A stretch of 64,000 bases of DNA. Source: Squalus acanthias (taxonomy: Eukaryota). How positions within the stretch are numbered: the stretch's first letter is position 1; the number at the start of each line of letters is the position of its first letter. Below the pieces are notes generated by a model that saw nothing but the letters and a program-made list of their open reading frames with translations, was not told the DNA's origin and did no database searches. The position numbers were made by a program, and so were the translations under genes. Below, piece by piece: positions 5,647 through 51,841 of this stretch. The stretch is from contig CM059447.1 in assembly GCA_030390025.1 (NCBI GenBank), positions 3,472,001-3,536,000 on the forward strand. The letters are read 5' to 3'.

Positions 5647-7520
5647 GTACAGTGAACGAGGAGAGATACTGAGAAGATGCACATGTTAATGTATGTCAAA
5701 GTGTATTACAGTATTTCCAATTGTGTATCAAAATAATCCAGGAAGAGGATGAAATTCATTTCTTATGGCCACTGATGAGTTGAGTAATTTAAAGCACTTT
5801 TAACTCAATTATGCAACTTAATCTAATTGCTAAGTAAAAAAGAAAAAAAAACTTTTGTCTTTTTACATATTCATTTTTAGAACAGTAAATACATAATGTG
5901 CCAACTGTATACACACTTCCAGTCACAATCAGTATAGATGAGCGGAGGCCATTTGACCCATCCAGTTTATCCTTCCATAAGGATTGACAGTTCTCCACTC
6001 AACTGCCTCCTTAATGACTCCAGAGTTTTTGCTACCAATATCCTACCTGTAAGATAATTCCTGGTATTAATCACTCTGTGAAAGAGAGCTTCGTGACTTC
6101 ATTGCTGAACTTGCCTATACCTGTGGCCCCTTGTGGTTTAACTTGAAATAGTGCTCTGGATTAACCATTTGTACTCCCAACTATTCTCTTGTATTCCTCC
6201 TATAATGTCTACTCTCATTTGCCTCCTTTTCAAGACCAAAAGTTTTTTTTTCTCTTTAATAACTCAGCCCTCTGACAGTAGTGATCAACCTGTGGCCCTT
6301 TTCTACATAATTTGGACTGGCGCTGATTCCAGTGTAAGTTGGGGAGAGCAGTGCATGAATGTCTTGGATCTCCATTTAGGTACCATACTCAAGTCCCAAC
6401 ACTAAGTTAAAAGTGCCTTATGGTACAGGATTGATTTTATCTTTGGTAAGATGTCACTCAGTTGTGAAAACTGTTTCAATTGTGAATAAAAGAAGGGGCT
6501 GATATTTACTTTGAAGTAATGACCATGATTTTGCAGCTGGCATTCCAATAGTTTTCCCTATGAAGGAGTCCCTATTTCACATTCTGCTATTGGACCAACC
6601 ATGAAATTCCAGGAATGCTGCTAAACAAATCTATAACTTGCATGTTGGTGTCCTAATGAGTGCAAGCATCTGTACTGCTTTCTGCTATTGTCAACACCAG
6701 TCAGAAATCCACCTGCTGCTACTAGCACATAGATATACTCAAGTGGAGAATCTGATGTACTGAGGTGTCTGTATTTTCACCACCCAATTCTTTGCCCTTC
6801 ATACTGTGTTTTGTCCTAGCTGATAATTGTCTTCTCGGCTTGTTTATTTTTTTTCTCAAGCATTGTTATTTTTTTTATTAAAGATCAACCCTAGATTTAG
6901 GGGAGTGAGGAGTTGGTGGGAGAACATATAAAGTTAAAAGAAAAATGAATAATAAAGGGGAATTTGATGGTGAAAAGATGAGTTTAAAAAAAAAGGAATA
7001 TGTCTTTTCTTTCTCCTTGCATCTGATCTACTTTCTGGAGATGGGAGGTCATGAGATTCCACTCTTTGACACACACAATCCAAGTTGTTTTTTTTTGTAA
7101 CAGTAAGTTCTGCTGTGGATGAAGTGCACTTTCAAAGTAAAGGACATCCACCTGGCAAGCACTTCTAATCAATGTTTAAGCTGGGAAGAACATATTCTTA
7201 AATTAACCTGGAATTTAAAAAAAAATTATTTAGCCACATGGACTGAAAGTAAGGCATTCAGTCAAGCATGAATTAAGCAAACAACACTAGTGTGTCTTAT
7301 GATGATGGTGGCGAGATATCTTGGGAATGTCATCTGATTTTTTCCTTCCAAAAATGTCTTCCACACTTGGGAGATGAAAAATTGACTTCCACAAGGACAT
7401 TAATCACTTTTCTGATTAAATGCTCGGGTGCAAAAAATATTTGGTTAAGACAACCAGTTACAGTAATGTAAACGTGGAGAATTGCCTTCCACATTTGCAC
7501 TTGAAGTCAGTATGAATATT

Positions 7521-33858: not shown

Positions 33859-35222
33859 AATGGGAGAATTGGTGGCAACTGAGGAAGGGAGTCAGTCACT
33901 GGCTGGAAGGAGGATGATTCGGGGGTGGCTGGTGAGTGGAGGGAGGCCGGCCCACTCTTGAAGAGTAGCTGGGAGGTAGAGGCCGCACTGGCCTAGAGGG
34001 AGAGGTGAGGAGAGGGGAGGTGAGAAGCCACCAGGGTTTGGTGCAGAAAGGAGTGGGACAAGACCCCAAGACAGTGAGGGACTGGGAATTAGCACGGAAT
34101 GGGCGGCAGGAAGAAAGGGCGGCCAAGAGTCCTATTTTTAAATCGGAGGAAGAGGCTGAAACTGCAGAGGATACTGAGGTCTGTGGCAAAAAAGAGCTGG
34201 CAGCTTCAGGAGAAGGAGACCGGGCTCCAAGCAGCAGCAGCTGCCCAAGAGGAGAGAAAGGAGAGTCTACATGATGGAGAAGATGAGTTTACTGGCTAAA
34301 CTTTGACTTTGACTAATACCATGGAAATCATCACCCAATGTGAATGGGCTGAGAGGGGAGGTTCGACACCTCCCATCCTTTGACCTGAGCTCCACCCCAG
34401 AGTTTAATCGTTATCTAAATTTTGTAATTTTTGTCTTTTATTTTGTTACAAACCTTGTTTCCAATAGGAAGTCCTTGGCTTACTGGAGAAATCAACGTGG
34501 CAGCTGAAAGGATTTACAAAGAAAAATATTTGTAGTTTAATGTATTCCCTTTCTCTACCACTTCAGTTGTGATTTGTTGATGTTTTATGTATATAAAGTT
34601 TGAGCCAATGTGTATGTGTGTATATATACACTTGTGACTCATAAATTTTTCCCTTCTAGCATGTGCTAGATGTATAAGTTCATTTCCTAGAAATCTGGTT
34701 GGGGAAGGGAGAAAAAAAAAATCAGTATGATTTTGATACTTACTTTCATGTCCCACTTGACGATGATCTTCATTACACTATCTAATGCTGTGTTTGGTAG
34801 AGTATGTGGAAATAGGTTAAATGCTGCAAAACAAGCGTATTATATGCAAAAGTTACAAAAAGTTTAGTTTGCTTATTCCGTATACTCTGCTGTAACTTTT
34901 GAAATCAAATAGCTGTTTCAACCTGCAAGTTTTTATTTCTTTTGCCAGTTCTCTCTCATCTCTGCTCTTGTAGGTTTTGGTTAGGCATGGTTCTAGGGGC
35001 TCCAGTTGCACTTGGCCACCTTATCCAAGGTGGTAATTATTTACGCATGAAACTCAATCGTGAGTATTGGCAGGCTTTTCAACTAAAGAGGCATCACATT
35101 TGAGCCTGATCCTATCCACACGTGGCCAGGAGTTGTTGGACAGTGTTCAGGAACAGGAACTTTGGCTGATTATTCCCTCCTTAATCCAGGGATGCTGAGG
35201 CCTGTTGTTGTGTCTGGGCCGC

Positions 35223-35680
35223 TGATGTAAGCTCCCAAAGTGCGGACCCAGTGATATACAAGGTCGACGCTACTGAGCTTGTTGGAAGAAAGACTGACCA
35301 AGTAATTGAAGTCACAACGGTTTATTACAGGCCTGGGGAGAACCTCTCATGTCGCTTACATGAGTACAACTCCACCGAGCTAATGAAAACACACATATTT
35401 ATATCCAATCAGGTTTAAAAGTTACACACAATGCTAGGTCTAAAAACACATTACTCGTTTTACAAATATTTCTGTCTTGCCTTATGGGGATCTCGTTATC
35501 CGAGGGTGGCTGTAAAAGTTACATACAATGCTATCTGTAAATCTCGTTGAAGGAGATAGACTCCGAAAGCTTGTAAGGTGTTGTGTGACTTGAAACAAAT
35601 CTCGTTAAAGGCCTGGCTTTCTGCAAATGAGTCATGCCCGAATTGCCCTGGTTATATCCAATTTTTAATATCTTACTTCA
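35223..35680 (-). repeat. 3' LTR
   Basis: No mismatch to 42105-42562 found by eye. AATAAA at 35326-35321. Preceded by the PPT. Confidence 0.96.
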
Positions 35681-35683
35681 ATT

Positions 35684-35693
35684 CCCCCCTTTT
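35684..35693 (-). promoter_or_regulatory. Polypurine tract
   Basis: AAAAGGGGGG followed by AAT and then the TG of the 3' LTR; very like the MLV PPT (AAAAAGGGGGG-AA-TG). Confidence 0.9.
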
Positions 35694-36060
35694 GACCTAT
35701 TGGACAACTGTTCCAATACAGGTCAACATGTATTCCTATTGCCTGGTGTCTGCCTGAGCGTGCACTCTCTGGCCTTCTACCAGTCTAGGTTATACATGGG
35801 TATGACATAAACCAATTTATAAGCCGGTTTCACCCCACGCGGTATATGTGGACTTATTATTTTCTTGTCTTGGTTCTATGTTGCCATCCCCGGGGCCCAA
35901 GAGCCCTGCATCAATGGTTTGGGCTTCTGGTTCGAGCTTCTGGTTCGAGCTCGTCCTCCATTCCCTCGGTGGGTGCGTGACGTGTCCTTTCGAGACTGTC
36001 ATCACTCACCAATCCTGTTTCTGCCACTCCCGTCTTACGGTTGGCCGGCCTGGTTATTAA

Positions 36061-36558
36061 TTACCATGTCCAATTCATCCCTTGTAATTTTAGGGCTATA
36101 GATCGGGTCTTACACCATCATGGCTTTACCTAATCTTTGAGCAGCAAGAATACACAGTATATTGTAATAACAATCACGAGGAATATCATTATGCTTTGCA
36201 CCACTGAGGCGCCCAACGTCCCCGACCATCCTGACCCCCAATCACCAAAATATCATTTCCGGTGTTATATAGGCCATATATAAGCAGATACTTGATTATC
36301 TTCCTTTTTGTCAGCCGTCCCTTCTTCCGTCGTTCTTCTAATTTGTCCTGTGGAAATACAAGGCTGGTCGTCACCAGCAGTTAGTTATTCCATTCTTACT
36401 ACTTTGCCAGTCTCCCAGATCTATTGAAACATACAGACCACGAAGAATGTTACTATCATAATGCAACAGGATCATATTAACGCGAATACAAGGATGTCCT
36501 GTCCCTTTGGACCCTATGCAAATAATCCTTGCTTTCCTTGTACAATATGATTTCTGGG
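36061..36558 (-). pseudogene. env: Internally deleted, stop-disrupted env relic
   Basis: Read in the pol frame: ILVFALI*SCCIMIVTFFVVCMFQ* (36495-36421), then *YFGDWGSGWSGTLGASVVQSIMIFLVIVITIYCVFLLLKD* (Trp/Gly-rich segment plus a hydrophobic anchor at 36204-36139). It sits in the env position. No homology search was run. Confidence 0.6.
36347..36386 (-). promoter_or_regulatory. Splice acceptor in the ERV 3' region
   Basis: Branch point AACTAAC (36386-36380), pyrimidine tract CCTTGTATTTCCACAG|G, with the AG at 36349-36348. Confidence 0.6.
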
Positions 36559-39500
36559 TTATTCATCAGCTTCTTTGTATAATTTTAATTGTGTCCAGTG
36601 TTTCCATCTTCCCTTTCCAGTGCCGTGCAGGTCTATGCATGCACAAGTGTCGCTGGTCATTAATACCAAATAGGGTCCTTCCCACCGGGGCCGTAACCCA
36701 GGTTTTATTGGAATTATTCTAGACATTACCTGACTTCCCACCCCAGGTATGACTTTCTTTTGTTCCTCGGTATCCCTCTCCAGATCCTTGATTATCTGCT
36801 GGTCTCTAGCCTCCTGTCTCAGCCCGTGCAGTTCCGCACATAATTGCTTTATGAACCTTCTGATTCTGTCCTTTAAAGGTCCCACATCTTCCCCTCCGGT
36901 CACTACTCCTTCGGGAAGCGCCATTGCCCGTCCCGTCATTAATTCAAAAGGGGTCAGTCCGGTGGTGCTATTTGGTGTGGCCCTCAGTCTCATTAGGATT
37001 GTGGGTAACAGTTCCGCCCATCCCTGCCCCGTCTCCACAATGGCCTTTGTGAGAGATCGTTTTAAGGTCCGATTCATTCGTTCCACCATTCCTGAACTTT
37101 CGGGATGGTAAGGTATATGAAATTTCTGCTTTACGCCCAACAGGGCGCAAGCCTCTTTCATTACCTTTCCGGTAAAGTGTGTTCCATTATCTGAATCTAT
37201 TTGTAATGGGACTCCCCACCGGGGTATTATTTCTTCTGCCAAGATCCGGGCCACTGTACTGGCGGTACAGTTTCGGGTGGCAAAAGCTTCCACCCACCTT
37301 GTGAATTGGTCAATTATTACCAGACAGTAGGTTTTTCCTTTGCTTTTGGTTAATGGTCCTGTAAAGTCTATTTGTAGTTTCTCCCAGGGTCCCTTGGGTC
37401 TTGGCTGTCTACCCCATTTTACCTTTACTGGTTTTCCGGTGTTACATTGCGCACAAATGTGGCAATCCTTACAATACTTCCTTATACTGCTTGATAGTCC
37501 GGGCCACCACCAGCATTGGCCTATGTTATTTATCATTCGGCTGGCCCCTGTATGGGCTTGTCCGTGATACAACCTCATTAGTTCCTGTTGGATACACTCC
37601 GGTGCACAGACCCGTCCCTCCTTCCTCCAGACCTTATCTCTGGATAGCATTACTCCCTTCTTTTCCCAAATGTTCAGCTCAGGTTCTGGTATGCCTTGAT
37701 GTAACTTAACAATATTATACTCAAGGGGTATTAATGGGACTGGGGCTCCCCCTATCGGTGTTACATTGCCACAGGGCGCCTCCGTCATAACCTTGGCGGC
37801 CAGGTCTGCCGCTCTGTTACCTTGTTCTTGTGGAGTTTTTCCTTTGGTGTGCGCTTTAACCTTTATTACTGCTAACTCCGTTGGTCCGCGCGCGGCATTC
37901 ACCAAGGACTTTACTACGTCCAGGTGTTGGATGGGGGCTCCCCCAGAGGTGATGTACCCCCTCCTACTCCATGCGGCCATATAATCATGTACTATTCCGA
38001 AGGCGTAGCGGCTGTCGGTATATACATTAACCCTTTTTCCCATAGCCAGTTTCAGGGCTTCCGTTAAGGCTGTTAGTTCTGCGACCTGGGCAGATTTATC
38101 CCCTGGGAGAGTTCCGGCTTGTAACACCATCCCTTCCCCATTTACCACCGCCCAGCCTGTCCTCGGCTTTCCCTGTACATATTTTCGGGATCCATCTACA
38201 TATAACTCCAAGTCCGCTTCGGCCAAGGGTATTTCTTTTATTTTGTCTAGGTCATTTTCTGGCTCTTCCTCATTCATGCATTGGTGGTCCTCTCCTTCCA
38301 TGATCATCATGGAGGCTGGGTTCTGCCCCATATCCCTGACTATCTGTATTGACTTGTCTTTGGGTAATAGTACCGCCTCCCAGGCTGCTCGTCGAGCATT
38401 TGAGACAGACTTCAGTCGTCCCGTATTAAGTAATTCTACCAGGGTGTGCTGGGTGTGTAGTACAATATCTCCGGTCATTATAATCGGTTCACTGACCCGT
38501 ACTGACCATCTGGCACAGTCTATAGCGGCCACGCAGCGGGGCATACCTGCCACGATGGGGGATCGTCTAGTGGAATAGTAGGCCACCGATCTCATGTTTC
38601 CTCCGTGCTCCTGGGCTACTACGGCGCTATAGTGTCCATCATGATTGTGACAGAATATGTGATAGGGTCTCTCTTGATCAGGTAATCCTAACGCGGGGGC
38701 GGCGGTCAGGGCTTGTTTAAGTTTGGTAAATGCTTCTTCCTGAGTGGATGTCCACCCGATGGGTTCTCCTGCTGCCCTACCCCCCTTTGTTAATTCATAC
38801 AGAGGCGCGGCCATGTGTGAGAAGCCTTCTATAAAGTTCCGGCTAAAGTTAAAGAGACCGAGTACCTGTCGTACTCCTCTCACGTTTATGGGCCTTGGCA
38901 TTTGGCTGATTGCCTCCTTCCTTTCCTCTGGCATAGCCCTTTTTCCCATACTGACCCTATACCCGAGGTATGTGACTTCCAATTTTCCTACCTGGGCTTT
39001 GGCTGGGTTTGCTTTAAAACCCGCCTCCCGTAGGGTTGAAAAGACCTTTACCAGGGCCCCCTTATGTCCCACTTTCGTTTCTGACGCTATTAGGAGGTCA
39101 TCCACGTATTGTAAGAGGGTACTATTTTCACCCTCTAAGTCTAGGTCTTCAAGAGCTCTGGCCATGTGGCGGTGAAAAATGGCTGGACTGTTATGGAATC
39201 CTTGTGGGACCCGTGTCCATGTATACTGTTTGCCGCCTATTGTAAAGGCGAACTTTTCCTGTGATTCCTCATGCAGGGGAATGGACCAGAACCCGTTTGC
39301 GATGTCTAACACGGTGAATATTTTGTGTTCCGGTTTTAAACCGTTAAAGATAGTAGCTGGGCTTGCTACAATTGGATATTCCTTTGGGGTCACTTTATTT
39401 AAGGCTGTGTAATCGATTGTAAGTCGATATGACGCATCAGGTTTCTTTACGGGCCATACTGGAGAGTTAGTGCCGGACACTGTTTCTCGCAGAATTCCCT

Positions 39501-40122
39501 GTTTCACGAGTTCCAATACTATACTCCGTACGGCTGTCTGGGCCTCCACTTTTAGGGGATATTGTTTATGGGGTCGGTGGGTTGGCCCGGGGACTCTGAC
39601 TGGGTTCATCTTAACCAGTCCGCAGTCCTGCTTGTGTTTGGCCCATAGTTCGGGGAATCGGTGGCAAATTGCCCCCCACCCTCCCTTTTCGTCCCATTTG
39701 GGGTCTATTATTTGGATAGCGCTGATGGCACATGCTGTCTTGGATCCCTTTGAGTTATGTCTCCCTTCCTTGTGGTTATCGGGCCATAGCAACTTATCCT
39801 GTTTGGGGTCTATTAAAACTCCCACTTCCCTTAGTATGTCTATACCCAGGATGGTTCCCTCAGTATTCTCACAGATCCAGAAACATGTAGGTATAATGAT
39901 TTTTCCCAATTCTAGTAATACTGTCTCACTTTTCCATGCTTTAATTTTTACTCCCCCTATCCCAGATATAAAAATATTTTCCTTGGTTCGCGGCAAGGGT
40001 ACGTTTGTTAGAGATATTGCTGCCCCGGTGTCTATGAGCATTCTGCACTGTCGGCCCCCTACCAGTGCCTCAATAAACATTCTAGGGTCTCCCTTTACCG
40101 GGTCTCCGAGGGCCGCTACCTT
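36559..40122 (-). CDS. pol: Pro-Pol (protease, RT, tether, RNase H, integrase), in frame with gag after a UGA; first ATG at 40080
   Basis: PR: LIDTGA...ILGIDIL. RT: LDIANGFW, PQGFHNSP, QYVDD. Retroviral RNase H: LYVDGS, AQVAEL, YTDSRY, VKAH, GNRAAD. IN: HHCC zinc finger, LQIDF/IDSDNG/GMVER, WEGPY. Uninterrupted for 1173 aa from the ATG. Confidence 0.97.
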   Translation of the reverse strand, partial: KVAALGDPVKGDPRMFIEALVGGRQCRMLIDTGAAISLTNVPLPRTKENIFISGIGGVKIKAWKSETVLLELGKIIIPTCFWICENTEGTILGIDILREVGVLIDPKQDKLLWPDNHKEGRHNSKGSKTACAISAIQIIDPKWDEKGGWGAICHRFPELWAKHKQDCGLVKMNPVRVPGPTHRPHKQYPLKVEAQTAVRSIVLELVKQGILRETVSGTNSPVWPVKKPDASYRLTIDYTALNKVTPKEYPIVASPATIFNGLKPEHKIFTVLDIANGFWSIPLHEESQEKFAFTIGGKQYTWTRVPQGFHNSPAIFHRHMARALEDLDLEGENSTLLQYVDDLLIASETKVGHKGALVKVFSTLREAGFKANPAKAQVGKLEVTYLGYRVSMGKRAMPEERKEAISQMPRPINVRGVRQVLGLFNFSRNFIEGFSHMAAPLYELTKGGRAAGEPIGWTSTQEEAFTKLKQALTAAPALGLPDQERPYHIFCHNHDGHYSAVVAQEHGGNMRSVAYYSTRRSPIVAGMPRCVAAIDCARWSVRVSEPIIMTGDIVLHTQHTLVELLNTGRLKSVSNARRAAWEAVLLPKDKSIQIVRDMGQNPASMMIMEGEDHQCMNEEEPENDLDKIKEIPLAEADLELYVDGSRKYVQGKPRTGWAVVNGEGMVLQAGTLPGDKSAQVAELTALTEALKLAMGKRVNVYTDSRYAFGIVHDYMAAWSRRGYITSGGAPIQHLDVVKSLVNAARGPTELAVIKVKAHTKGKTPQEQGNRAADLAAKVMTEAPCGNVTPIGGAPVPLIPLEYNIVKLHQGIPEPELNIWEKKGVMLSRDKVWRKEGRVCAPECIQQELMRLYHGQAHTGASRMINNIGQCWWWPGLSSSIRKYCKDCHICAQCNTGKPVKVKWGRQPRPKGPWEKLQIDFTGPLTKSKGKTYCLVIIDQFTRWVEAFATRNCTASTVARILAEEIIPRWGVPLQIDSDNGTHFTGKVMKEACALLGVKQKFHIPYHPESSGMVERMNRTLKRSLTKAIVETGQGWAELLPTILMRLRATPNSTTGLTPFELMTGRAMALPEGVVTGGEDVGPLKDRIRRFIKQLCAELHGLRQEARDQQIIKDLERDTEEQKKVIPGVGSQVMSRIIPIKPGLRPRWEGPYLVLMTSDTCACIDLHGTGKGRWKHWTQLKLYKEADE

Positions 40123-41646
40123 TCAGGCGTTGCCTTTTTTTATCTGTTTGACCAGTTTTTCCATTTTCCTTGTCAGCTCCACTATGTCTTCCTCGTCGGA
40201 GGTGTCTGAGGAATCATCTCTCTTATACTTCCTACTCTTTCTCCTCTTCCTTTCTTCTCTTTCTCTGTCATCCTCCCAGTCTTGCATTCCCTTCCTGATC
40301 AGTTTCGCCATGCTTTCCTCGTTATTCTCTGACCTTCCAATACTTGACCCCGGTTTTCCTCCCTGTCTAGGTCCCTGACCTTCCCTTCCTCCTCCTTTAT
40401 TCCAACATTGTTGTTTCCTATGCCCTGGTTTTCCACAATTATGACAGGAAGCCTTTTGCTGAGATGTCTGATTATCCCCTTTGTTCTGTTGCCTCGGGCA
40501 ATCCCTTTTCATGTGGCCCTCCTGTCCGCAACCGAAGCATGCCGCCACACTTAATGCATCCTCATTGTCGCTATCCGTCCTTAGGGCAGCTATTTTAGGT
40601 TTGGCTTGTTCTTGGACCTGATTATCTACTTCGCACGCCCACTGTATTAAGTCCTCCCAATTATGGTGGACCACTAGCCCCATTTTTATTGCATTCTGGT
40701 GCATTGGACTTAGTCCCTGTTTAAATGTTTGCAGAAAACAAGCGTTGTTTTTGTTTAAGGGGCCTGCGGACCACTTTCGTTTTCCATAATCGATAGCGCT
40801 TTCTCCCTTTTCTTGTGTGATTCCGCTTATAGCTGCCCAATTTACGGGGGCCTGTCCCATTGCTGCTTCCACAGCGGCCTTGAATTGGTCGAACTCAGTG
40901 TTTAATTGTTGGATTGTCTGTCCTGTATTTGTGGCCCACTGGCCATTTCCGTGGTTGCCCTGCACTAATCTCCACTGTTCCTCGGGACATTTAGCTCGTA
41001 CCAATTGATCGATATCTATACTATGTAGGGCATGGTTTATGCGTACTTCGCGCAGTTTGTGCCAGAATGTCTGATTATTCTGGCGGTGTTTTAAGGCTGG
41101 TAATTCATTGAGGAGAATCACCCGATCCTGCAGGCTTAACGGTGTGTAGGTCAACGTTGTGGTGGCCGGCCTGCCCGGTACTGCCGGGACGGCCGGATTC
41201 CCCCCTGCCGCCGGAATTTCCGGAACCGCGGGGATTGCTGGCCTATATTGCAGTGTCACTGGTGCCATCGGAACAGGCTCCGGGGCTGCCGACTGGTGTC
41301 CTGTATATGGGGGAGGACAGCCAGTCGGCCCCCCCTGGGGCAGCTCCGGGTATAACCTTTCCTGGGAGTTACCCGGTTTTGGGTTGGCTGCAGCTGCTGG
41401 ATATGTTTTAAGGGCTCCGCGCTGGAGCATACGTTCCCGATCGTATCGTGCCGCTACGATAATGCACGCTTTCTCCAATTTATTTTTGGTTTGTTTCCTC
41501 CACCAGTCCCTTTGTGTGTCTGGTTTATCGTCCTGGTTCCACCCTGCCTTTCTCATTTTCTCAATTAATTTTTTATTCTTGTCGTAAACATATCGTGTTA
41601 CAGACTCTGGGTCTCCCCAGGGTTCCTTATCCTCTTTGCTAGCCAT
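40123..41646 (-). CDS. gag: Retroviral Gag polyprotein, 507 aa
   Basis: Good Kozak context (ACTATGG). Late domains LYPEL and PPPY. CA N-terminus MA/PVT...YTPLS. MHR-like ITQEKGESAIDYGKR. Two CX2CX4HX4C knuckles (CFGCGQEGHMKRDC, CHNCGKPGHRKQQC). Confidence 0.95.
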   Translation of the reverse strand: MASKEDKEPWGDPESVTRYVYDKNKKLIEKMRKAGWNQDDKPDTQRDWWRKQTKNKLEKACIIVAARYDRERMLQRGALKTYPAAAANPKPGNSQERLYPELPQGGPTGCPPPYTGHQSAAPEPVPMAPVTLQYRPAIPAVPEIPAAGGNPAVPAVPGRPATTTLTYTPLSLQDRVILLNELPALKHRQNNQTFWHKLREVRINHALHSIDIDQLVRAKCPEEQWRLVQGNHGNGQWATNTGQTIQQLNTEFDQFKAAVEAAMGQAPVNWAAISGITQEKGESAIDYGKRKWSAGPLNKNNACFLQTFKQGLSPMHQNAIKMGLVVHHNWEDLIQWACEVDNQVQEQAKPKIAALRTDSDNEDALSVAACFGCGQEGHMKRDCPRQQNKGDNQTSQQKASCHNCGKPGHRKQQCWNKGGGREGQGPRQGGKPGSSIGRSENNEESMAKLIRKGMQDWEDDREREERKRRKSRKYKRDDSSDTSDEEDIVELTRKMEKLVKQIKKGNA

Positions 41647-41673
41647 AGTTTATTTATTTATTTATTTATTTCT

Positions 41674-41920
41674 TTTTCGGCCAGAAGGAACTCCCCGTTT
41701 TAACTACTACCTAAGTTTACTTTTCGGCCAGAAGGACTCGCCCTCCACCGTGTTAAAACTCCCCGTTTTAACTACTACTTAAGTTTACTTTTCGGCCAGA
41801 AGGACTCGTCCTCCACCGTGTTAAAACTCCCCGTTTTAACTCCTACTTAAGTTTACTTTTCGGCCAGAAGGACTCGTCCTCCACCGTGTTAAAACTCCCC
41901 GTTTTAACTACTACCTAAGT
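41674..41920 (-). repeat. 68-bp tandem array in the ERV 5' leader (about 3 units plus a 47-bp truncated unit)
   Basis: TTTTCGGCCAGAAGG recurs at 41674, 41721, 41789 and 41857. Confidence 0.92.
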
Positions 41921-42034
41921 GTTAACCGCCTTCAATTAAAGGTGTCTTTCTTTTTATAGTTCTTTTGTACGTCAATCTTACTTAACGTCTCGCCAGCGAT
42001 TAACCTCTAATTTTACAGGTGGTAATTTAAACGT

Positions 42035-42043
42035 ACTCACCCG
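42035..42043 (-). promoter_or_regulatory. Major splice donor of the ERV leader
   Basis: CGG|GTGAGT about 45 nt downstream of the PBS, the usual position of a retroviral major donor. Confidence 0.7.
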
Positions 42044-42084
42044 TCTTAGGTTATCGCTGTCCGAGAGTTTTGTTCAGATCGCGC

Positions 42085-42102
42085 ATCCCATCCTCGTCGC
42101 CA
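42085..42102 (-). promoter_or_regulatory. Primer-binding site for tRNA-Ser(GCU)
   Basis: TGGCGACGAGGATGGGAT begins 2 nt after the 5' LTR. It is complementary to the 3' 18 nt (ATCCCATCCTCGTCG-CCA) of vertebrate tRNA-Ser(GCU) as I recall it. Confidence 0.93.
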
Positions 42103-42104
42103 AT

Positions 42105-42562
42105 TGATGTAAGCTCCCAAAGTGCGGACCCAGTGATATACAAGGTCGACGCTACTGAGCTTGTTGGAAGAAAGACTGACCAAGTAATTGAAGTCACAAC
42201 GGTTTATTACAGGCCTGGGGAGAACCTCTCATGTCGCTTACATGAGTACAACTCCACCGAGCTAATGAAAACACACATATTTATATCCAATCAGGTTTAA
42301 AAGTTACACACAATGCTAGGTCTAAAAACACATTACTCGTTTTACAAATATTTCTGTCTTGCCTTATGGGGATCTCGTTATCCGAGGGTGGCTGTAAAAG
42401 TTACATACAATGCTATCTGTAAATCTCGTTGAAGGAGATAGACTCCGAAAGCTTGTAAGGTGTTGTGTGACTTGAAACAAATCTCGTTAAAGGCCTGGCT
42501 TTCTGCAAATGAGTCATGCCCGAATTGCCCTGGTTATATCCAATTTTTAATATCTTACTTCA
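42105..42562 (-). repeat. 5' LTR (U3-R-U5)
   Basis: Minus sense TGAAGT...ACATCA. AP-1 site TGACTCA, three AACGAGAT motifs, ATTGG directly before TATAAATA (42285-42278), AATAAA at 42208-42203. Confidence 0.96.
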
Positions 42563-43519
42563 GCCGCTATTTTGGCACAGGCTGTAGATCAAACCTAAAA
42601 CCTTTCTTGTCTTTGTGGCTCACTGAGCTATTGGATCAGCTCCGCTAGTTTTAATTTTGCTGTATAATGTAAATTATCTTGTTCATATCTCTATTGTATA
42701 ATGTGCATGTGTTTCAACTTTAGCTTGATATCCAGACATCAGGCATGTCCCTGCTGTGGAACAAGGCTGCTTGTAAACAATGAGGGGGATCAAATTCAGT
42801 CCAGATTCCTGCATAAACAGAGTACAAGATTGTCTTTTCATGTACCAGTCAAAATTGTAAAGTTGAGTTACCACTGTGCACATATACTGTACAATTCCAA
42901 GCATTTAGTGCAGTTGGTGCATTCTCTTTTTTAAAAAAAATCTTGTGTTTTCAATTCTTCTCATTTCTTCCTCAATGAAATTGTATCAATTGGTATTTTC
43001 CAATCAAGATGGTGGGCGGGAAATCTGTTCGATCTCTGCCAGTGCCATTCTTGAATCGGATGCTTGAGAGTGTGAGAGTGTTGGCCCTGGATGACTTGTC
43101 TGATTTTTCTTTAATTTGTCCTTTTGCCATTTTTCATTTTTTCTTTTGTTTTGCACTCGGTCCTATCCCCAAGCTGTATAGCAAATATCATGATCTCTGT
43201 TTCTAGAGAGAAATTGGGACACATCCTGTCTTCCAGTAATAGCAGACACCTATTTCAAATACTCTTTTTCACATTGACTGTTAAAGCCCTTTATTTCAGA
43301 GCTGATTATGTTCATAACTGGCTATGTCAGTAAAGCCATTTGAGATAATCTTCACTGATCATGCTTGGTCAGTGGAGCTGAGTTTTAAAAATCGAACTAT
43401 TAATATACAGTGAGGGTTGAATTAGAAGGGGAAGCTGCATGATGTGGGTAGATTATGAAAGTTAAGAAATTGTGAAAATCATCAAAAATATAAAGTAAAA
43501 ATTGAGAGTAGGGCTCTGC

Positions 43520-46677: not shown

Positions 46678-48281
46678 GACTAAAAGCTGACAAATCTCCT
46701 GGACCTGACGGCCTACATCTTGGGGTTCTAAAAGAGGTGGCTGAAGAGATAGTGGATGCATTGGTTTTGATCTTCCAAAATTTCCTAGATTCTGGCGAGG
46801 TCCCAGCGGATTGGAAGGTCGCACATGTAACACCGCTATTCAAGAAAGGAGGGAGAGAGAAAACTGAACTACAGGCCAGTTAGCCTGACCTCAGTCGTCG
46901 GGAAAATGCTGGAATCCATTGTTAAGGAAGTGGTATCAAGTCACTTTGAAAATCATAACCTGATTAGGCAGAGTCAACATGGTTTTATGAAAGGGAAATC
47001 ATGTTTGACAAATTTATTTGAGTTTTTTGAGGGTGTAACTAGCAGGGTAGATAAAGGGGAACCAGTGGATGTAGTATATTTGGATTTCCAAAAGGCATTC
47101 GATAAGGTGCCACATAAAAGATTATTACACAAGATTAGGGCTCATGGGATTGGGGGTAATATAGTAGCATGGCTAGAGGACTGGTTAACGGACAGAAAAC
47201 AGAGAGTAGGGATAAACGGATCTTTTTCAGGTTGGCAGGCTGTAACTAGTGGGGTGCCGCAAGGATCAGTGTTGGGGCCTCAGCTATTTACAATCTATAT
47301 TAATGACCTAGATGAGGGGACTGAGTGTAATGTTTCCAAGTTTGCTGATGATACAAAGCTAGGTGGGACAGTAAGCTCTGAGGAGAGCACAAAGAGTCTG
47401 CAAAGGGATATAGATAGACTCAGTGAGTGGGCAGTAAGGTGGCAGATGGAATATAATGTAGGGAAATGTGAGGTTATTCACTTTGGTAGGAAGAATAGAA
47501 AAACAGAATATTTTTTAAATGGTGAGAAACTTTCAAATGTTGGTGCTCGGAGATTTGGGTGTCCTCGTGCAAGAAACACAGAAAGCTAGCATGCAGGTAC
47601 AGCAAGCAATAAGGAAGGCAAATGGCATGTTGGCCTTTCTTGCAAGGGGGTTGGAGTATAAGAGTAAGGAAGTCTTGCTACAATTGTACAGGGCCTTGGT
47701 GAGACCACACCTGGAGTACTATGCACAGTTCTGATCTCCTTATCTAAGAAAGGATATACTTGCCTTGGAGGCGGTGCAACGAAGGTTCACTAGATTGATT
47801 CCTGGGATGAGAGGGCTGTCCTATGATGAGAGATTGTGTAGAATGGGCCTATACTCTCTGGAGTTTAGAAGAATGAGAGGTGATCTCATTGAAACATACA
47901 AGATTCTGAAGGGGATTGACAGGATAAATGCTGAGAGGTTGTTTCCCCCGGCTGGAGTGTCTAGAACTAGGGGGCATAGTCTCAGGATAAGGGGTCGGCC
48001 ATTTAAGACTGAGATGAGGAGGAATTTCTTCACTCAGAGGGTTGTGAATCTTTGGAATTCTCTCCCCCCATAAGGCTGTGTGTGAATGCTGAGTCTTTGA
48101 GTATATTCAAGGCTGAGATAGATAGATTTTTGGACTCCAGGGGAATCTAGGGATATGGAGATCGGGCGGGAAAGTGGAGTTGAGGTCGATGGTCAGCCAT
48201 GATCTTATTGAATGGCGGAACAGGCTCGAGGGGCCGTATGGCCTACGCCTGCTCTGACTACTTATGTTCTTATGTTATGTT
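46678..48281 (+). mobile_element. 5'-truncated CR1 LINE (ORF2 RT with frameshifts and a stop)
   Basis: KSPGPDG, QHGF, YLDFQKAFDKV, SGVPQGSVLGP, KFADD, TRGHS, FFTQRVVNLWNSLP. Ends in a CTTATGTT repeat. Confidence 0.95.
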
Positions 48282-50179: not shown

Positions 50180-51841
50180 ATGGTTCTTAATGAATACTTT
50201 GCGTCTGTTTTCACAAAAAAGAGGTACGATGCAGACATTGCAATCAGGGAGGAGGAGTGTGAAATATTAGATGAAATAAACATAGTGAAAGAGGAAGTAT
50301 TAAGGGGTTTAGCATCTTTGAAAATGGATAATTCCCCAGGCCCGGATGACTGGTAAGAGAGGAAATAGCCGAGGCTCTGACCATCATTTACCAATCATCT
50401 CTGGCTACAGGTGTGGTGCCAGAGGACTGGAGGACTGCTAACGTGGTACCGTTGTTTAAAAAGGAGAAAGGGATCGACCAAGTAATTACAGGCCAGTCAG
50501 CCTAACCTCAGTGGTGGGAAAATTATTGGAAAAAATTCTGAGGGACAGGATAAATCTTCATTTAGAAAGACACGGATTAATCCGGGACAGTCAGCATGGA
50601 TTTGTTAAGGGATGGTCGTGTCTGACTAACTTGATTGAACTTTTTGAGGAGGTAACGAGGAGGGTCGATGAGGGTAGTGCATTTGATGTAGTCTATATGG
50701 ATTTTAGCAAGGCTTTTGATAAGGTCCCGCATGGCTGACTAGTCACGAAAGTAAAAGCCCATGGGATCCAAGGCAAAGTGGCAAGTTGGATCCAAAATTG
50801 GTTCAGAGGCAGGAAACAAAGGGTAATGGTTTCCAGTGGGGTTCCGCAGGACTCAGTTATGGGTCCTTTGCTTTTCGTGGTATATATCAATGATTTGGAC
50901 TTGAATGTAGGAAGTATGATTAAGAAGTTTGCAGATGATACAAAAATTGGCCGTGTGGTTGATAATGAAGAAGAAAGCTGCAGACTGCAGGAAGATATCA
51001 ATGGACTGATCAGGTGGGCAGAACAGTGGCAAATGGAATTCAATCTGGAGAAGTGTGAGATAATGCATTTGGGGAGGGCTAACAAGGCAAGGGAATACAC
51101 ATTAAATGGTAGGACACAGAAGTGCAGAAGATCAGAGGGACCTTGGAGTGCGTGTCCACAGATCCCTGAAGGTAGCAGGACAGGTAGATAAGGTGGTTAA
51201 GAAGGCATACGGGATACTTACCTTTATTAGCCGAGGCATAGAATATAAGAGCAAGGAGGTTATGCTTCAACTGTATAAAACACTAGTTGGGCCGCAGCTA
51301 GAATACTGCGTGCAGTTCTGGTCAACACATTACAGGAAGGATGTGATTGCACTAGAAGGGGTGCAGAGGAGATTTACGAGGATGTTGCCTAAGCTGGGGA
51401 ATTTTAACTGAGGAAAGATTGGATAGGCTGGGGTTGTTTTCTTTGGAACAGAGGAGGCTGAGGGGAGACCTAACTGAGGTGTATAAAATTGAGGTGCCTA
51501 GATAGAATGGATAGGAAGGACCTATTTCCCTTAGCAGAAGGGTCAATAACCAGGGGGCATAGATTTAAAGTAATTGGTTGGAGGTTTAGAGGGGATTTGA
51601 GGAGAAATTTTTTAACCCAGAGGGTGGTGGGGATCTGGAACTCCCTGCCTGAAAGGGTGGTAAAGGCAGAGACCCTCATCACATTTAAAAAGTACTTGGA
51701 TATGCACTTGAAGTGCCATAACCTACAAAGCTACGGACCAAGTGCTGGAAAGTGGGATTAGGCTGGATAGCTTTGCTGGCCAGCACGGACAAGATGGGCC
51801 GAATGGCCTCCTTCTGTGCTGTAAATTTCTATGATTCTATG
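50180..51841 (+). mobile_element. 5'-truncated CR1 LINE (second subfamily)
   Basis: LNEYFASVF, SPGPD, MDFSKAFDKVPH, KFADD, TQRVVGIWNSLP. TTCTATGA tail. Confidence 0.93.

Follow-up and report, generated by a model that had tools for sequence, protein, structure and literature searches.

How might an endogenous retrovirus (ERV) that can no longer make an envelope protein multiply in a shark germline, and from which retroviral lineage did it come? These questions are raised by a provirus on the minus strand at 35223–42562 of a 64,000-nucleotide stretch of Squalus acanthias DNA (assembly GCA_030390025.1, contig CM059447.1, positions 3,472,001 to 3,536,000; hereafter the window, in whose numbering positions are given). 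An original prediction, made from the letters alone, had called it a very young retrovirus with intact gag-pol and lost env, of uncertain lineage and perhaps still copying itself. We read it as what is probably an unfixed copy of a young ERV subfamily that has lost most of its env and is likely to be amplifying by intracellular retrotransposition in the germline, with Gag-Pol probably made by readthrough of a UGA codon.

The two long terminal repeats (LTRs; 3' LTR at 35223–35680 and 5' LTR at 42105–42562, both minus strand) are 458 bp each, agree at 458 of 458 bases and end in TG...CA, and the insertion is framed by the target-site duplication GCCGC (35218–35222 on the left, 42563–42567 on the right). 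An 18-nt primer binding site complementary to tRNA-Ser(GCT) follows at 42085–42102, and a polypurine tract (35682–35693) is in place ahead of the 3' LTR. The mismatch-free LTRs, intact 5-bp duplication and perfect primer site that had been predicted are thus all present, as is the short interval of about 0.9 kb between pol and the polypurine tract (878 bp measured from pol to the 3' LTR).

This provirus is one of many. The junction left by its env deletion occurs exactly 60 times in the genome, on most large contigs (0 for the control), and a word from the U3 region of the LTR has 128 exact matches, a number which, set against 60 junctions, implies few solo LTRs. We examined 46 loci, about half of them picked through the env-less 3' region; three were unparsed and four had no located 5' LTR start, which left 39 with both LTRs, and 43 were measured for the distance from pol to the 3' LTR. 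That distance is 865–891 bp in all 43. Among the 39 two-LTR copies, target duplications are 5 bp in 31, 4 bp in one and missing in seven, and the LTR pair is identical in 30, with a total of 12 substitutions in about 19.7 kb. Mean pol divergence among the young copies is 0.16%, and 14 of 44 retain open gag, the intervening TGA and open pol. LTR lengths range from 456 to 518 bp between copies but are concordant within each copy, and each copy sits in a target duplication of its own; the LTR identity is therefore not an artefact of assembly collapse. In four loci (L084, L098, L099 and L107), the 5' LTR has a polypurine tract ahead of it, marking tandem proviruses that share one LTR.

Nor is the window copy fixed. 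In each of two samples from two studies (X11 and X14), one Logan contig crosses the insertion site at flank depth and skips 7345 nt, that is, the 7340 nt of the element plus 5 nt of duplication, and the flank itself is single-copy. Genotyping rests on these two samples, which have good flank cover; that of X6 and X9 is too thin. Their contigs show 3 differences from the window in 3 kb, suggesting the same species, and if X11 and X14 are indeed of that species the insertion is unfixed. The contig depth summed over the element's interior comes to about 30–35 times that of the flank in both samples, a figure that is not a copy number and that we left unused. The 3' part of the element also occurs in other runs (X5–X9, X15–X20): those labelled as organisms A, B and C contain 0.7–0.97 of its words and those labelled D and E 0.4–0.5, the labels belonging to close species or being synonyms.

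What remains of env in the window amounts to about 290 nt in two pieces, both on the minus strand. A 5' piece ending where the signal peptide begins lies at 36266–36404, and a piece with the membrane-proximal region and membrane anchor lies at 36113–36252, out of frame with the first. Compared with one natural older copy, 266 nt are missing before the 5' piece and about 1054 nt after it, the latter deletion spanning most of the surface subunit and of the transmembrane (TM) ectodomain, and deletions of 13 and 78 nt cut the tail. The anchor remnant aligns with a sister-family Env at 40% identity over 35 aa (E 1.4e-9, local search) and matches older env-bearing copies at 92–97%. Usable env is therefore gone, as predicted, but env is not simply absent, as the signal-region piece and the anchor survive.

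Because of the way the 46 loci were chosen, their env count is biased, and a search for env-bearing kin was therefore run. With the 39-residue env remnant as query, it returned 59 identical copies, each in a frame of 40 codons, and about 17 others, 89–97% identical, in longer frames, five of these of 472–487 codons. Of 20 older loci fetched, 16 still have the interior of env that is gone from the window copy. Over gag-pol, these older copies share about 95% identity with the window copy; their LTR pairs are 93–99% identical, and their primer site, where readable, is that of the window copy. Their Env is of gamma type (TLV_coat, E 5e-18; CWVC, furin site RSKR and CX6CC), and 13 of its 22 named relatives come from sharks or rays. 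A gag-pol DNA tree of 32 copies consists of two stars, an older one with tips of about 1% and a young one with tips of about 0.08%, separated by a split with a value of 100 in the Shimodaira–Hasegawa-like approximate likelihood ratio test (SH-aLRT). A second, different env deletion is found in three of the 20 older loci (L128–L130, dispersed copies), so env was lost at least twice in this lineage.

Other changes mark the step from parent to daughter. Directly after pol, older copies have a 48-codon open reading frame (ORF) with one hydrophobic stretch, which in the window is reduced to a frameshifted remnant (36420–36566, minus strand); it possibly encoded an accessory membrane protein that was lost together with env. 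A small ORF of 48–76 codons, likewise with one hydrophobic stretch, also sits at the end of pol in env-bearing relatives (L055, 6920–7090; L062, reverse, 6908–7135). The middle of U3 is remodelled in the young copies relative to older LTRs, which we offer as a lead to a changed expression niche like that described for Drosophila ERVs (PMC12992720).

The gag and pol genes have been under purifying selection. Between young and older copies, pol differs by 56 synonymous and 34 non-synonymous changes (ratio of non-synonymous to synonymous rates, pN/pS, 0.18) and gag by 27 and 31 (pN/pS 0.31); among the young copies, pol carries 58 non-synonymous variants where 67 are expected (P 0.02, spectrum-matched). 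The env remnants have diverged by only about 3% (8 of 255 sites), compared with 7–8% in the small-ORF region and in R-U5, so env was probably lost late on the branch. Of the 31 amino-acid differences that separate the daughter's Gag from the parent's, 15 lie in codons 38–98, a matrix-like region (window 41350–41535) where pN/pS is below 1.

The proteins themselves place the element among the Retroviridae rather than Ty3/gypsy. Pol (36559–40122, minus strand, 1187 aa open; Pfam and structure model) comprises a protease (aa 16–104), a reverse transcriptase (RT) with the motif YVDD (225–390), a tether (457–585), an RNase H (637–777) and an integrase (841–1007). The matches to RT_RNaseH_2 at 457–532 and to RNase_H at 637–777 correspond to the tether plus second RNase H that had been taken as the mark of a retrovirus. 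The structure model (predicted local distance difference test, pLDDT, 89) agrees, its best match being the RT of XMRV/murine leukaemia virus (MLV) with Z 37, compared with Z 32 for Ty3 RT, and the ancestral env is retroviral. Gag (40126–41646, minus strand, 507 aa from the Met at 41646) is without Gly2 and has a PPPY motif, a capsid-like helical domain, two CCHC zinc knuckles and a basic/acidic tail; in the window copy it carries a private 24-nt in-frame deletion at 40766. Its model is poor (pLDDT 53), and its fold matches, to epsilon- and gamma-type capsids, were used only to call the domain a retroviral capsid; in an Atlas search with the capsid region all scores were below 0.9. The tail, about 70 residues after the knuckles (window 40126–40330), combines a basic run with an acidic serine patch and is shared with the parent subfamily but not with sister Gags; it is a possible nuclear import signal.

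The 5 kb of gag-pol had been described as open, which does not hold for a single frame: Gag ends in a TGA (40125–40123), after which pol continues in the same frame. The TGA is retained in 38 of 43 copies, and in the other five the junction was not found, mostly owing to internal deletions. We consider it a likely readthrough site. Stop and predicted 3' stem together occupy 40052–40125 (minus strand), with arms at about 40115–40108 and 40059–40052, and a stem is predicted between about +9 to +18 and about +61 to +75 after the stop in the window and in six of six sister loci. The sister junctions read UGA-CUA, UGA-CGG or UGA-CAG, of which UGA-CUA and UGA-CGG are known leaky type II contexts (PMC13517186). 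Frameshifting at an A-run just 5' of the stop was weighed and dismissed, because pol sits in the 0 frame. Nine of 43 copies have one to three extra bases in or beside this run (window 40141–40160), which may reflect RT slippage or assembly error, and in one copy (L047) an in-frame deletion removes the stop and fuses gag and pol into a frame of 1665 codons.

Four related families, with Pol 54–58% identical to that of the window, share the genome. In three of them, copies occur with open gag and pol, env frames of 490–528 codons and LTRs 99–100% alike. Sister families A–C (L051–L064, L068) have a gamma-type env and primer sites different from the window's, and the env-bearing sister Gags are also without Gly2, so that missing Gag myristoylation says little about lineage. 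Target duplications in sister families A and B are 4 bp (exact in five of five copies of family B and in two of three of family A; one case is 5 bp; L051–L059, L068), against 5 bp in the window's family and its parent (L111–L130). Duplication length has thus switched within one clade, which makes it weak as a class marker and undoes its use as a lineage clue in the original prediction.

Is the family still moving, and if so by what route? The steps that we propose would be LTR-driven transcription in germ cells, synthesis of Gag-Pol through UGA readthrough aided by the 3' stem, reverse transcription primed on tRNA-Ser(GCT), and retention of the particles in the cell followed by integration by the element's own integrase. 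One alternative is that the burst is over, the family's activity dating from between some hundred thousand and a few million years before the present and its fresh look being due to the slow mutation and long-kept polymorphisms of sharks. At the rate of 2.2e-10 per site per year assumed in PMC4422223, the pooled LTR divergence corresponds to a mean of about 1.4 million years, and by our calculation one 458-bp pair could stay identical for as long as about 15 million years; a measured shark pedigree rate is 7e-10 mutations per generation (PMC10587355). LTR identity therefore dates little in sharks, and near-identical sequence does occur in runs under three organism labels. However, the LTR age is an upper bound, because assembly or RT errors will account for some of the LTR differences; solo LTRs are few, about a third of the copies (the 14 of 44 above) remain open and the insertion is missing at full flank depth in both well-covered samples, so that we regard an ended burst as rather unlikely. 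The family is young, as predicted; that it is still copying itself is plausible.

Another alternative accepts recent spread and changes its route: env-less copies would reinfect germ cells by borrowing Env in trans, either from the older subfamily or from young env-bearing sister families. Since such env-bearing sisters, with open genes and identical LTRs, lie in the same genome, this is a real rival, and the retained PPPY motif and a Gag N-terminus close to that of the env-bearing parent show no visible loss of budding signals. Against it, the age of the parent subfamily is about tenfold that of the young one (tips of about 1% against 0.08%) and most of its copies are broken, sister Gags are only 31–33% identical to the window's, the two env losses fit an env that had become dispensable, and env loss with intracellular spread is a known route (PMC10536682). 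We hold complementation to be distinctly improbable and favour germline intracellular retrotransposition, with a disabled env, selected gag-pol and many recent dispersed copies, traits of env-less amplifying ERVs, all present here. Several points weigh against this preference. Env-less copies outnumber older env-bearing ones by only about three- to fourfold (59 against about 17), and the older copies multiplied too. The selection signal within the young copies is weak (P 0.09 for the deficit in gag), much of the selection on gag-pol may predate the loss of env, and such selection does not separate retrotransposition in cis from reinfection with a borrowed envelope, young env-bearing sisters being at hand. 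As for readthrough, the window's own context, UGA-AAG, is not among the classified leaky ones, the junction stem does not beat shuffled sequences (z +0.1 to −0.9) and its arms are also constrained as protease codons.

To place the lineage, we built a midpoint-rooted RT tree from 63 of 135 rows, with no labelled row for snakehead retrovirus (SnRV), ERV4, ERV-L, foamy viruses or lokiretroviruses among them. The element falls in a clade of nine rows (SH-aLRT 97) that holds shark or unnamed sequences only, among them the four sister families, a horn shark protein and two unnamed proteins, whereas 33 class-I rows form a group without it (SH-aLRT 99), in agreement with a 123-row tree. Named Pol relatives begin with the horn shark protein, and a Pimephales protein (P0004) is 51% identical over RT to tether. 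BFVD entry Q88285, unnamed there and which we take to be the SnRV Gag-Pol, reaches 41% identity across 235 columns and 30% across 427. Over five RT motif blocks (89 positions, compared by eye with supplement 6 of PMC10435555), SnRV agrees at 67 positions and Grar.ERVi.4 at 64, compared with 51 for simian foamy virus, 49 for MLV and 46 each for walleye dermal sarcoma virus (WDSV) and MuERV-L. The element would thus belong, with fair probability, to a non-class-I lineage that is broadly SnRV-like (clade Huo), within an unnamed, shark-rich branch.

One could instead see a separate, unnamed retroviral lineage no closer to SnRV than to class I, and the composition of the nine-row clade, the epsilon/gamma-type capsid fold (from a low-confidence model), the gamma-type env and the 4-bp duplications of the sisters would suit it. 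Speaking against an SnRV affinity, MLV is 36% identical over RT–RNase H, no lower than the Q88285 entry. A separate origin nevertheless seems rather unlikely to us given the agreement with SnRV in the RT blocks and the tree's separation of the window from class I. A protein search narrowed to the RT core gave 24 proteins, none named SnRV, and a scan of IMG/VR with the RT gave three pattern matches, none a relative.

Each of the other known groups considered disagrees with the element in at least one feature. The element lies outside gamma/epsilon retroviruses and foamy viruses, as had been suspected: its RT falls outside the class-I group, with the 5-bp duplication in 31 of 39 copies as a further, weak trait, and its pol runs in frame behind a gag with two knuckles, where foamy viruses are described with a pol of its own start in another frame and without a Cys-His box (PMC8278194). 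Two CCHC knuckles also contrast with none as reported for ERV4 (PMC4299795), although the 5-bp duplication does match, and YVDD with two knuckles contrasts with the YIDD and lack of a knuckle given for ERV-L/ERV-S (PMC8278194), in line with the low MuERV-L block score. For lokiretroviruses, the gamma-type Envs of parent and sisters contrast with an F-like Env of Mononegavirales type (PMC7947760). Of the lineages originally proposed, the SnRV-like one is therefore probable, whereas ERV4-like is not supported, given the knuckles, nor is loki-like, given the parent's env. The unusual trait mix on which that proposal drew is borne out for the tRNA-Ser primer site, YVDD and the two knuckles, and gag-pol is in frame but interrupted by the TGA.

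Among env-less amplifying ERVs, MusD has the same traits as IAP and MuERV-L, and in IAP and MusD the switch came with changed Gag membrane targeting, a change not evident in the window's family. All three differ from it in retroviral class, and here an env-bearing parent is present, only 5% away. For IAP and MuERV-L, the shared traits are a degraded env, gag-pol under selection, raised copy number and recent insertions (PMC10536682). SnRV and SnRV-like ERVs (clade Huo, PMC6001957; elephant-shark CmiERV lineage I, PMC4422223) offer the best named RT-block match, an in-frame stop between gag and pol and an aquatic host, and some SnRV-related ERVs have Gag zinc fingers (PMC4299795); they differ in that SnRV has UAG-GGC at the junction (PMC13517186) and keeps env, and that overall RT–RNase H identity is modest. 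The cyprinid elements Grar.ERVi.1/4 and Rrut.ERVi.3 (PMC10435555) resemble ours in RT type, shared also by the Pimephales protein, in identical LTRs and in insertion polymorphism, but have an intact env and teleost hosts. XtERV-S of Xenopus tropicalis (PMC8278194) has a tRNA-Ser primer site, a gag-pol UGA, a 5-bp duplication, unmyristoylated Gag, identical LTRs and a class-I-like TM on a non-class-I pol; it is described as related to ERV-L, with YIDD, no zinc knuckle, tRNA-Ser(AGA/TGA) and an intact env. A UGA junction is also known in the aquatic retroviruses SSSV, ZFERV and RMEV, which are described as epsilon-related (PMC13517186), whereas the window RT lies outside class I.

A 2004-genome survey that required env (Wang and Han 2023, PMC10435555) reported no invading ERV (ERVi) in 13 cartilaginous fishes. 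Of the features defining an ERVi there, the window copy has identical LTRs and insertion polymorphism and lacks the required env, and the sister families show two of the three. Families A–C are candidates for a recent retroviral invasion of a cartilaginous fish. The window copy is thus an unfixed retroviral insertion in a group for which that survey reports no invading ERV. Tentatively, one may go further and suppose an undescribed clade of shark retroviruses that is invading the genome now, its env-bearing sisters still infectious and the window's family just turned germline retrotransposon, with env lost twice, the small membrane gene lost, U3 remodelled and a duplication length unlike that of the sisters. 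We think this possible, though doubtful; if true, cartilaginous fish would have their first case of a retroviral invasion under way, and a switch from virus to transposon could be read stepwise in one genome.

Env-less amplifying ERVs are a known kind, with mice supplying most of the known cases in which amplification followed the loss of env. We found no published description of the window's family in the literature searched, which omits most subscription papers as well as Repbase and bioRxiv supplements. As far as that literature shows, the case is new. The coexistence of parent and daughter makes it unusually complete: a single genome carries an env-bearing parent, an env-less daughter and a second, independent env deletion, at a distance of 5%, so that the succession of changes is readable. 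With lengths of both 4 and 5 bp inside one clade, target duplications become a weaker class marker, and the case further adds putative UGA readthrough sites with a common predicted 3' stem.

Some features of the locus and its surroundings stand apart from these questions. ORFs at 33969–34504 matched no Pfam family, and no host gene was identified at the insertion site. The leader (41689–41920, minus strand) contains 68-bp tandem repeats, and a 15-nt marker of the repeat unit is present 3–9 times depending on the copy. The tRNA 3' pattern matching the primer site occurs 241 times in the genome (0 for the control), and all three loci scanned among those matching it are tRNA-Ser(gct). Sequence of tRNA-Ser(GCT) type forms large tandem arrays with a spacing of about 1.6 kb at 38.9–41.9 Mb of one contig (G000:C26). 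Further along the window, at 46831–48073 and 50693–51196, lie reverse transcriptase remnants that, from their motifs, we take to be of CR1/long interspersed nuclear element (LINE) type.

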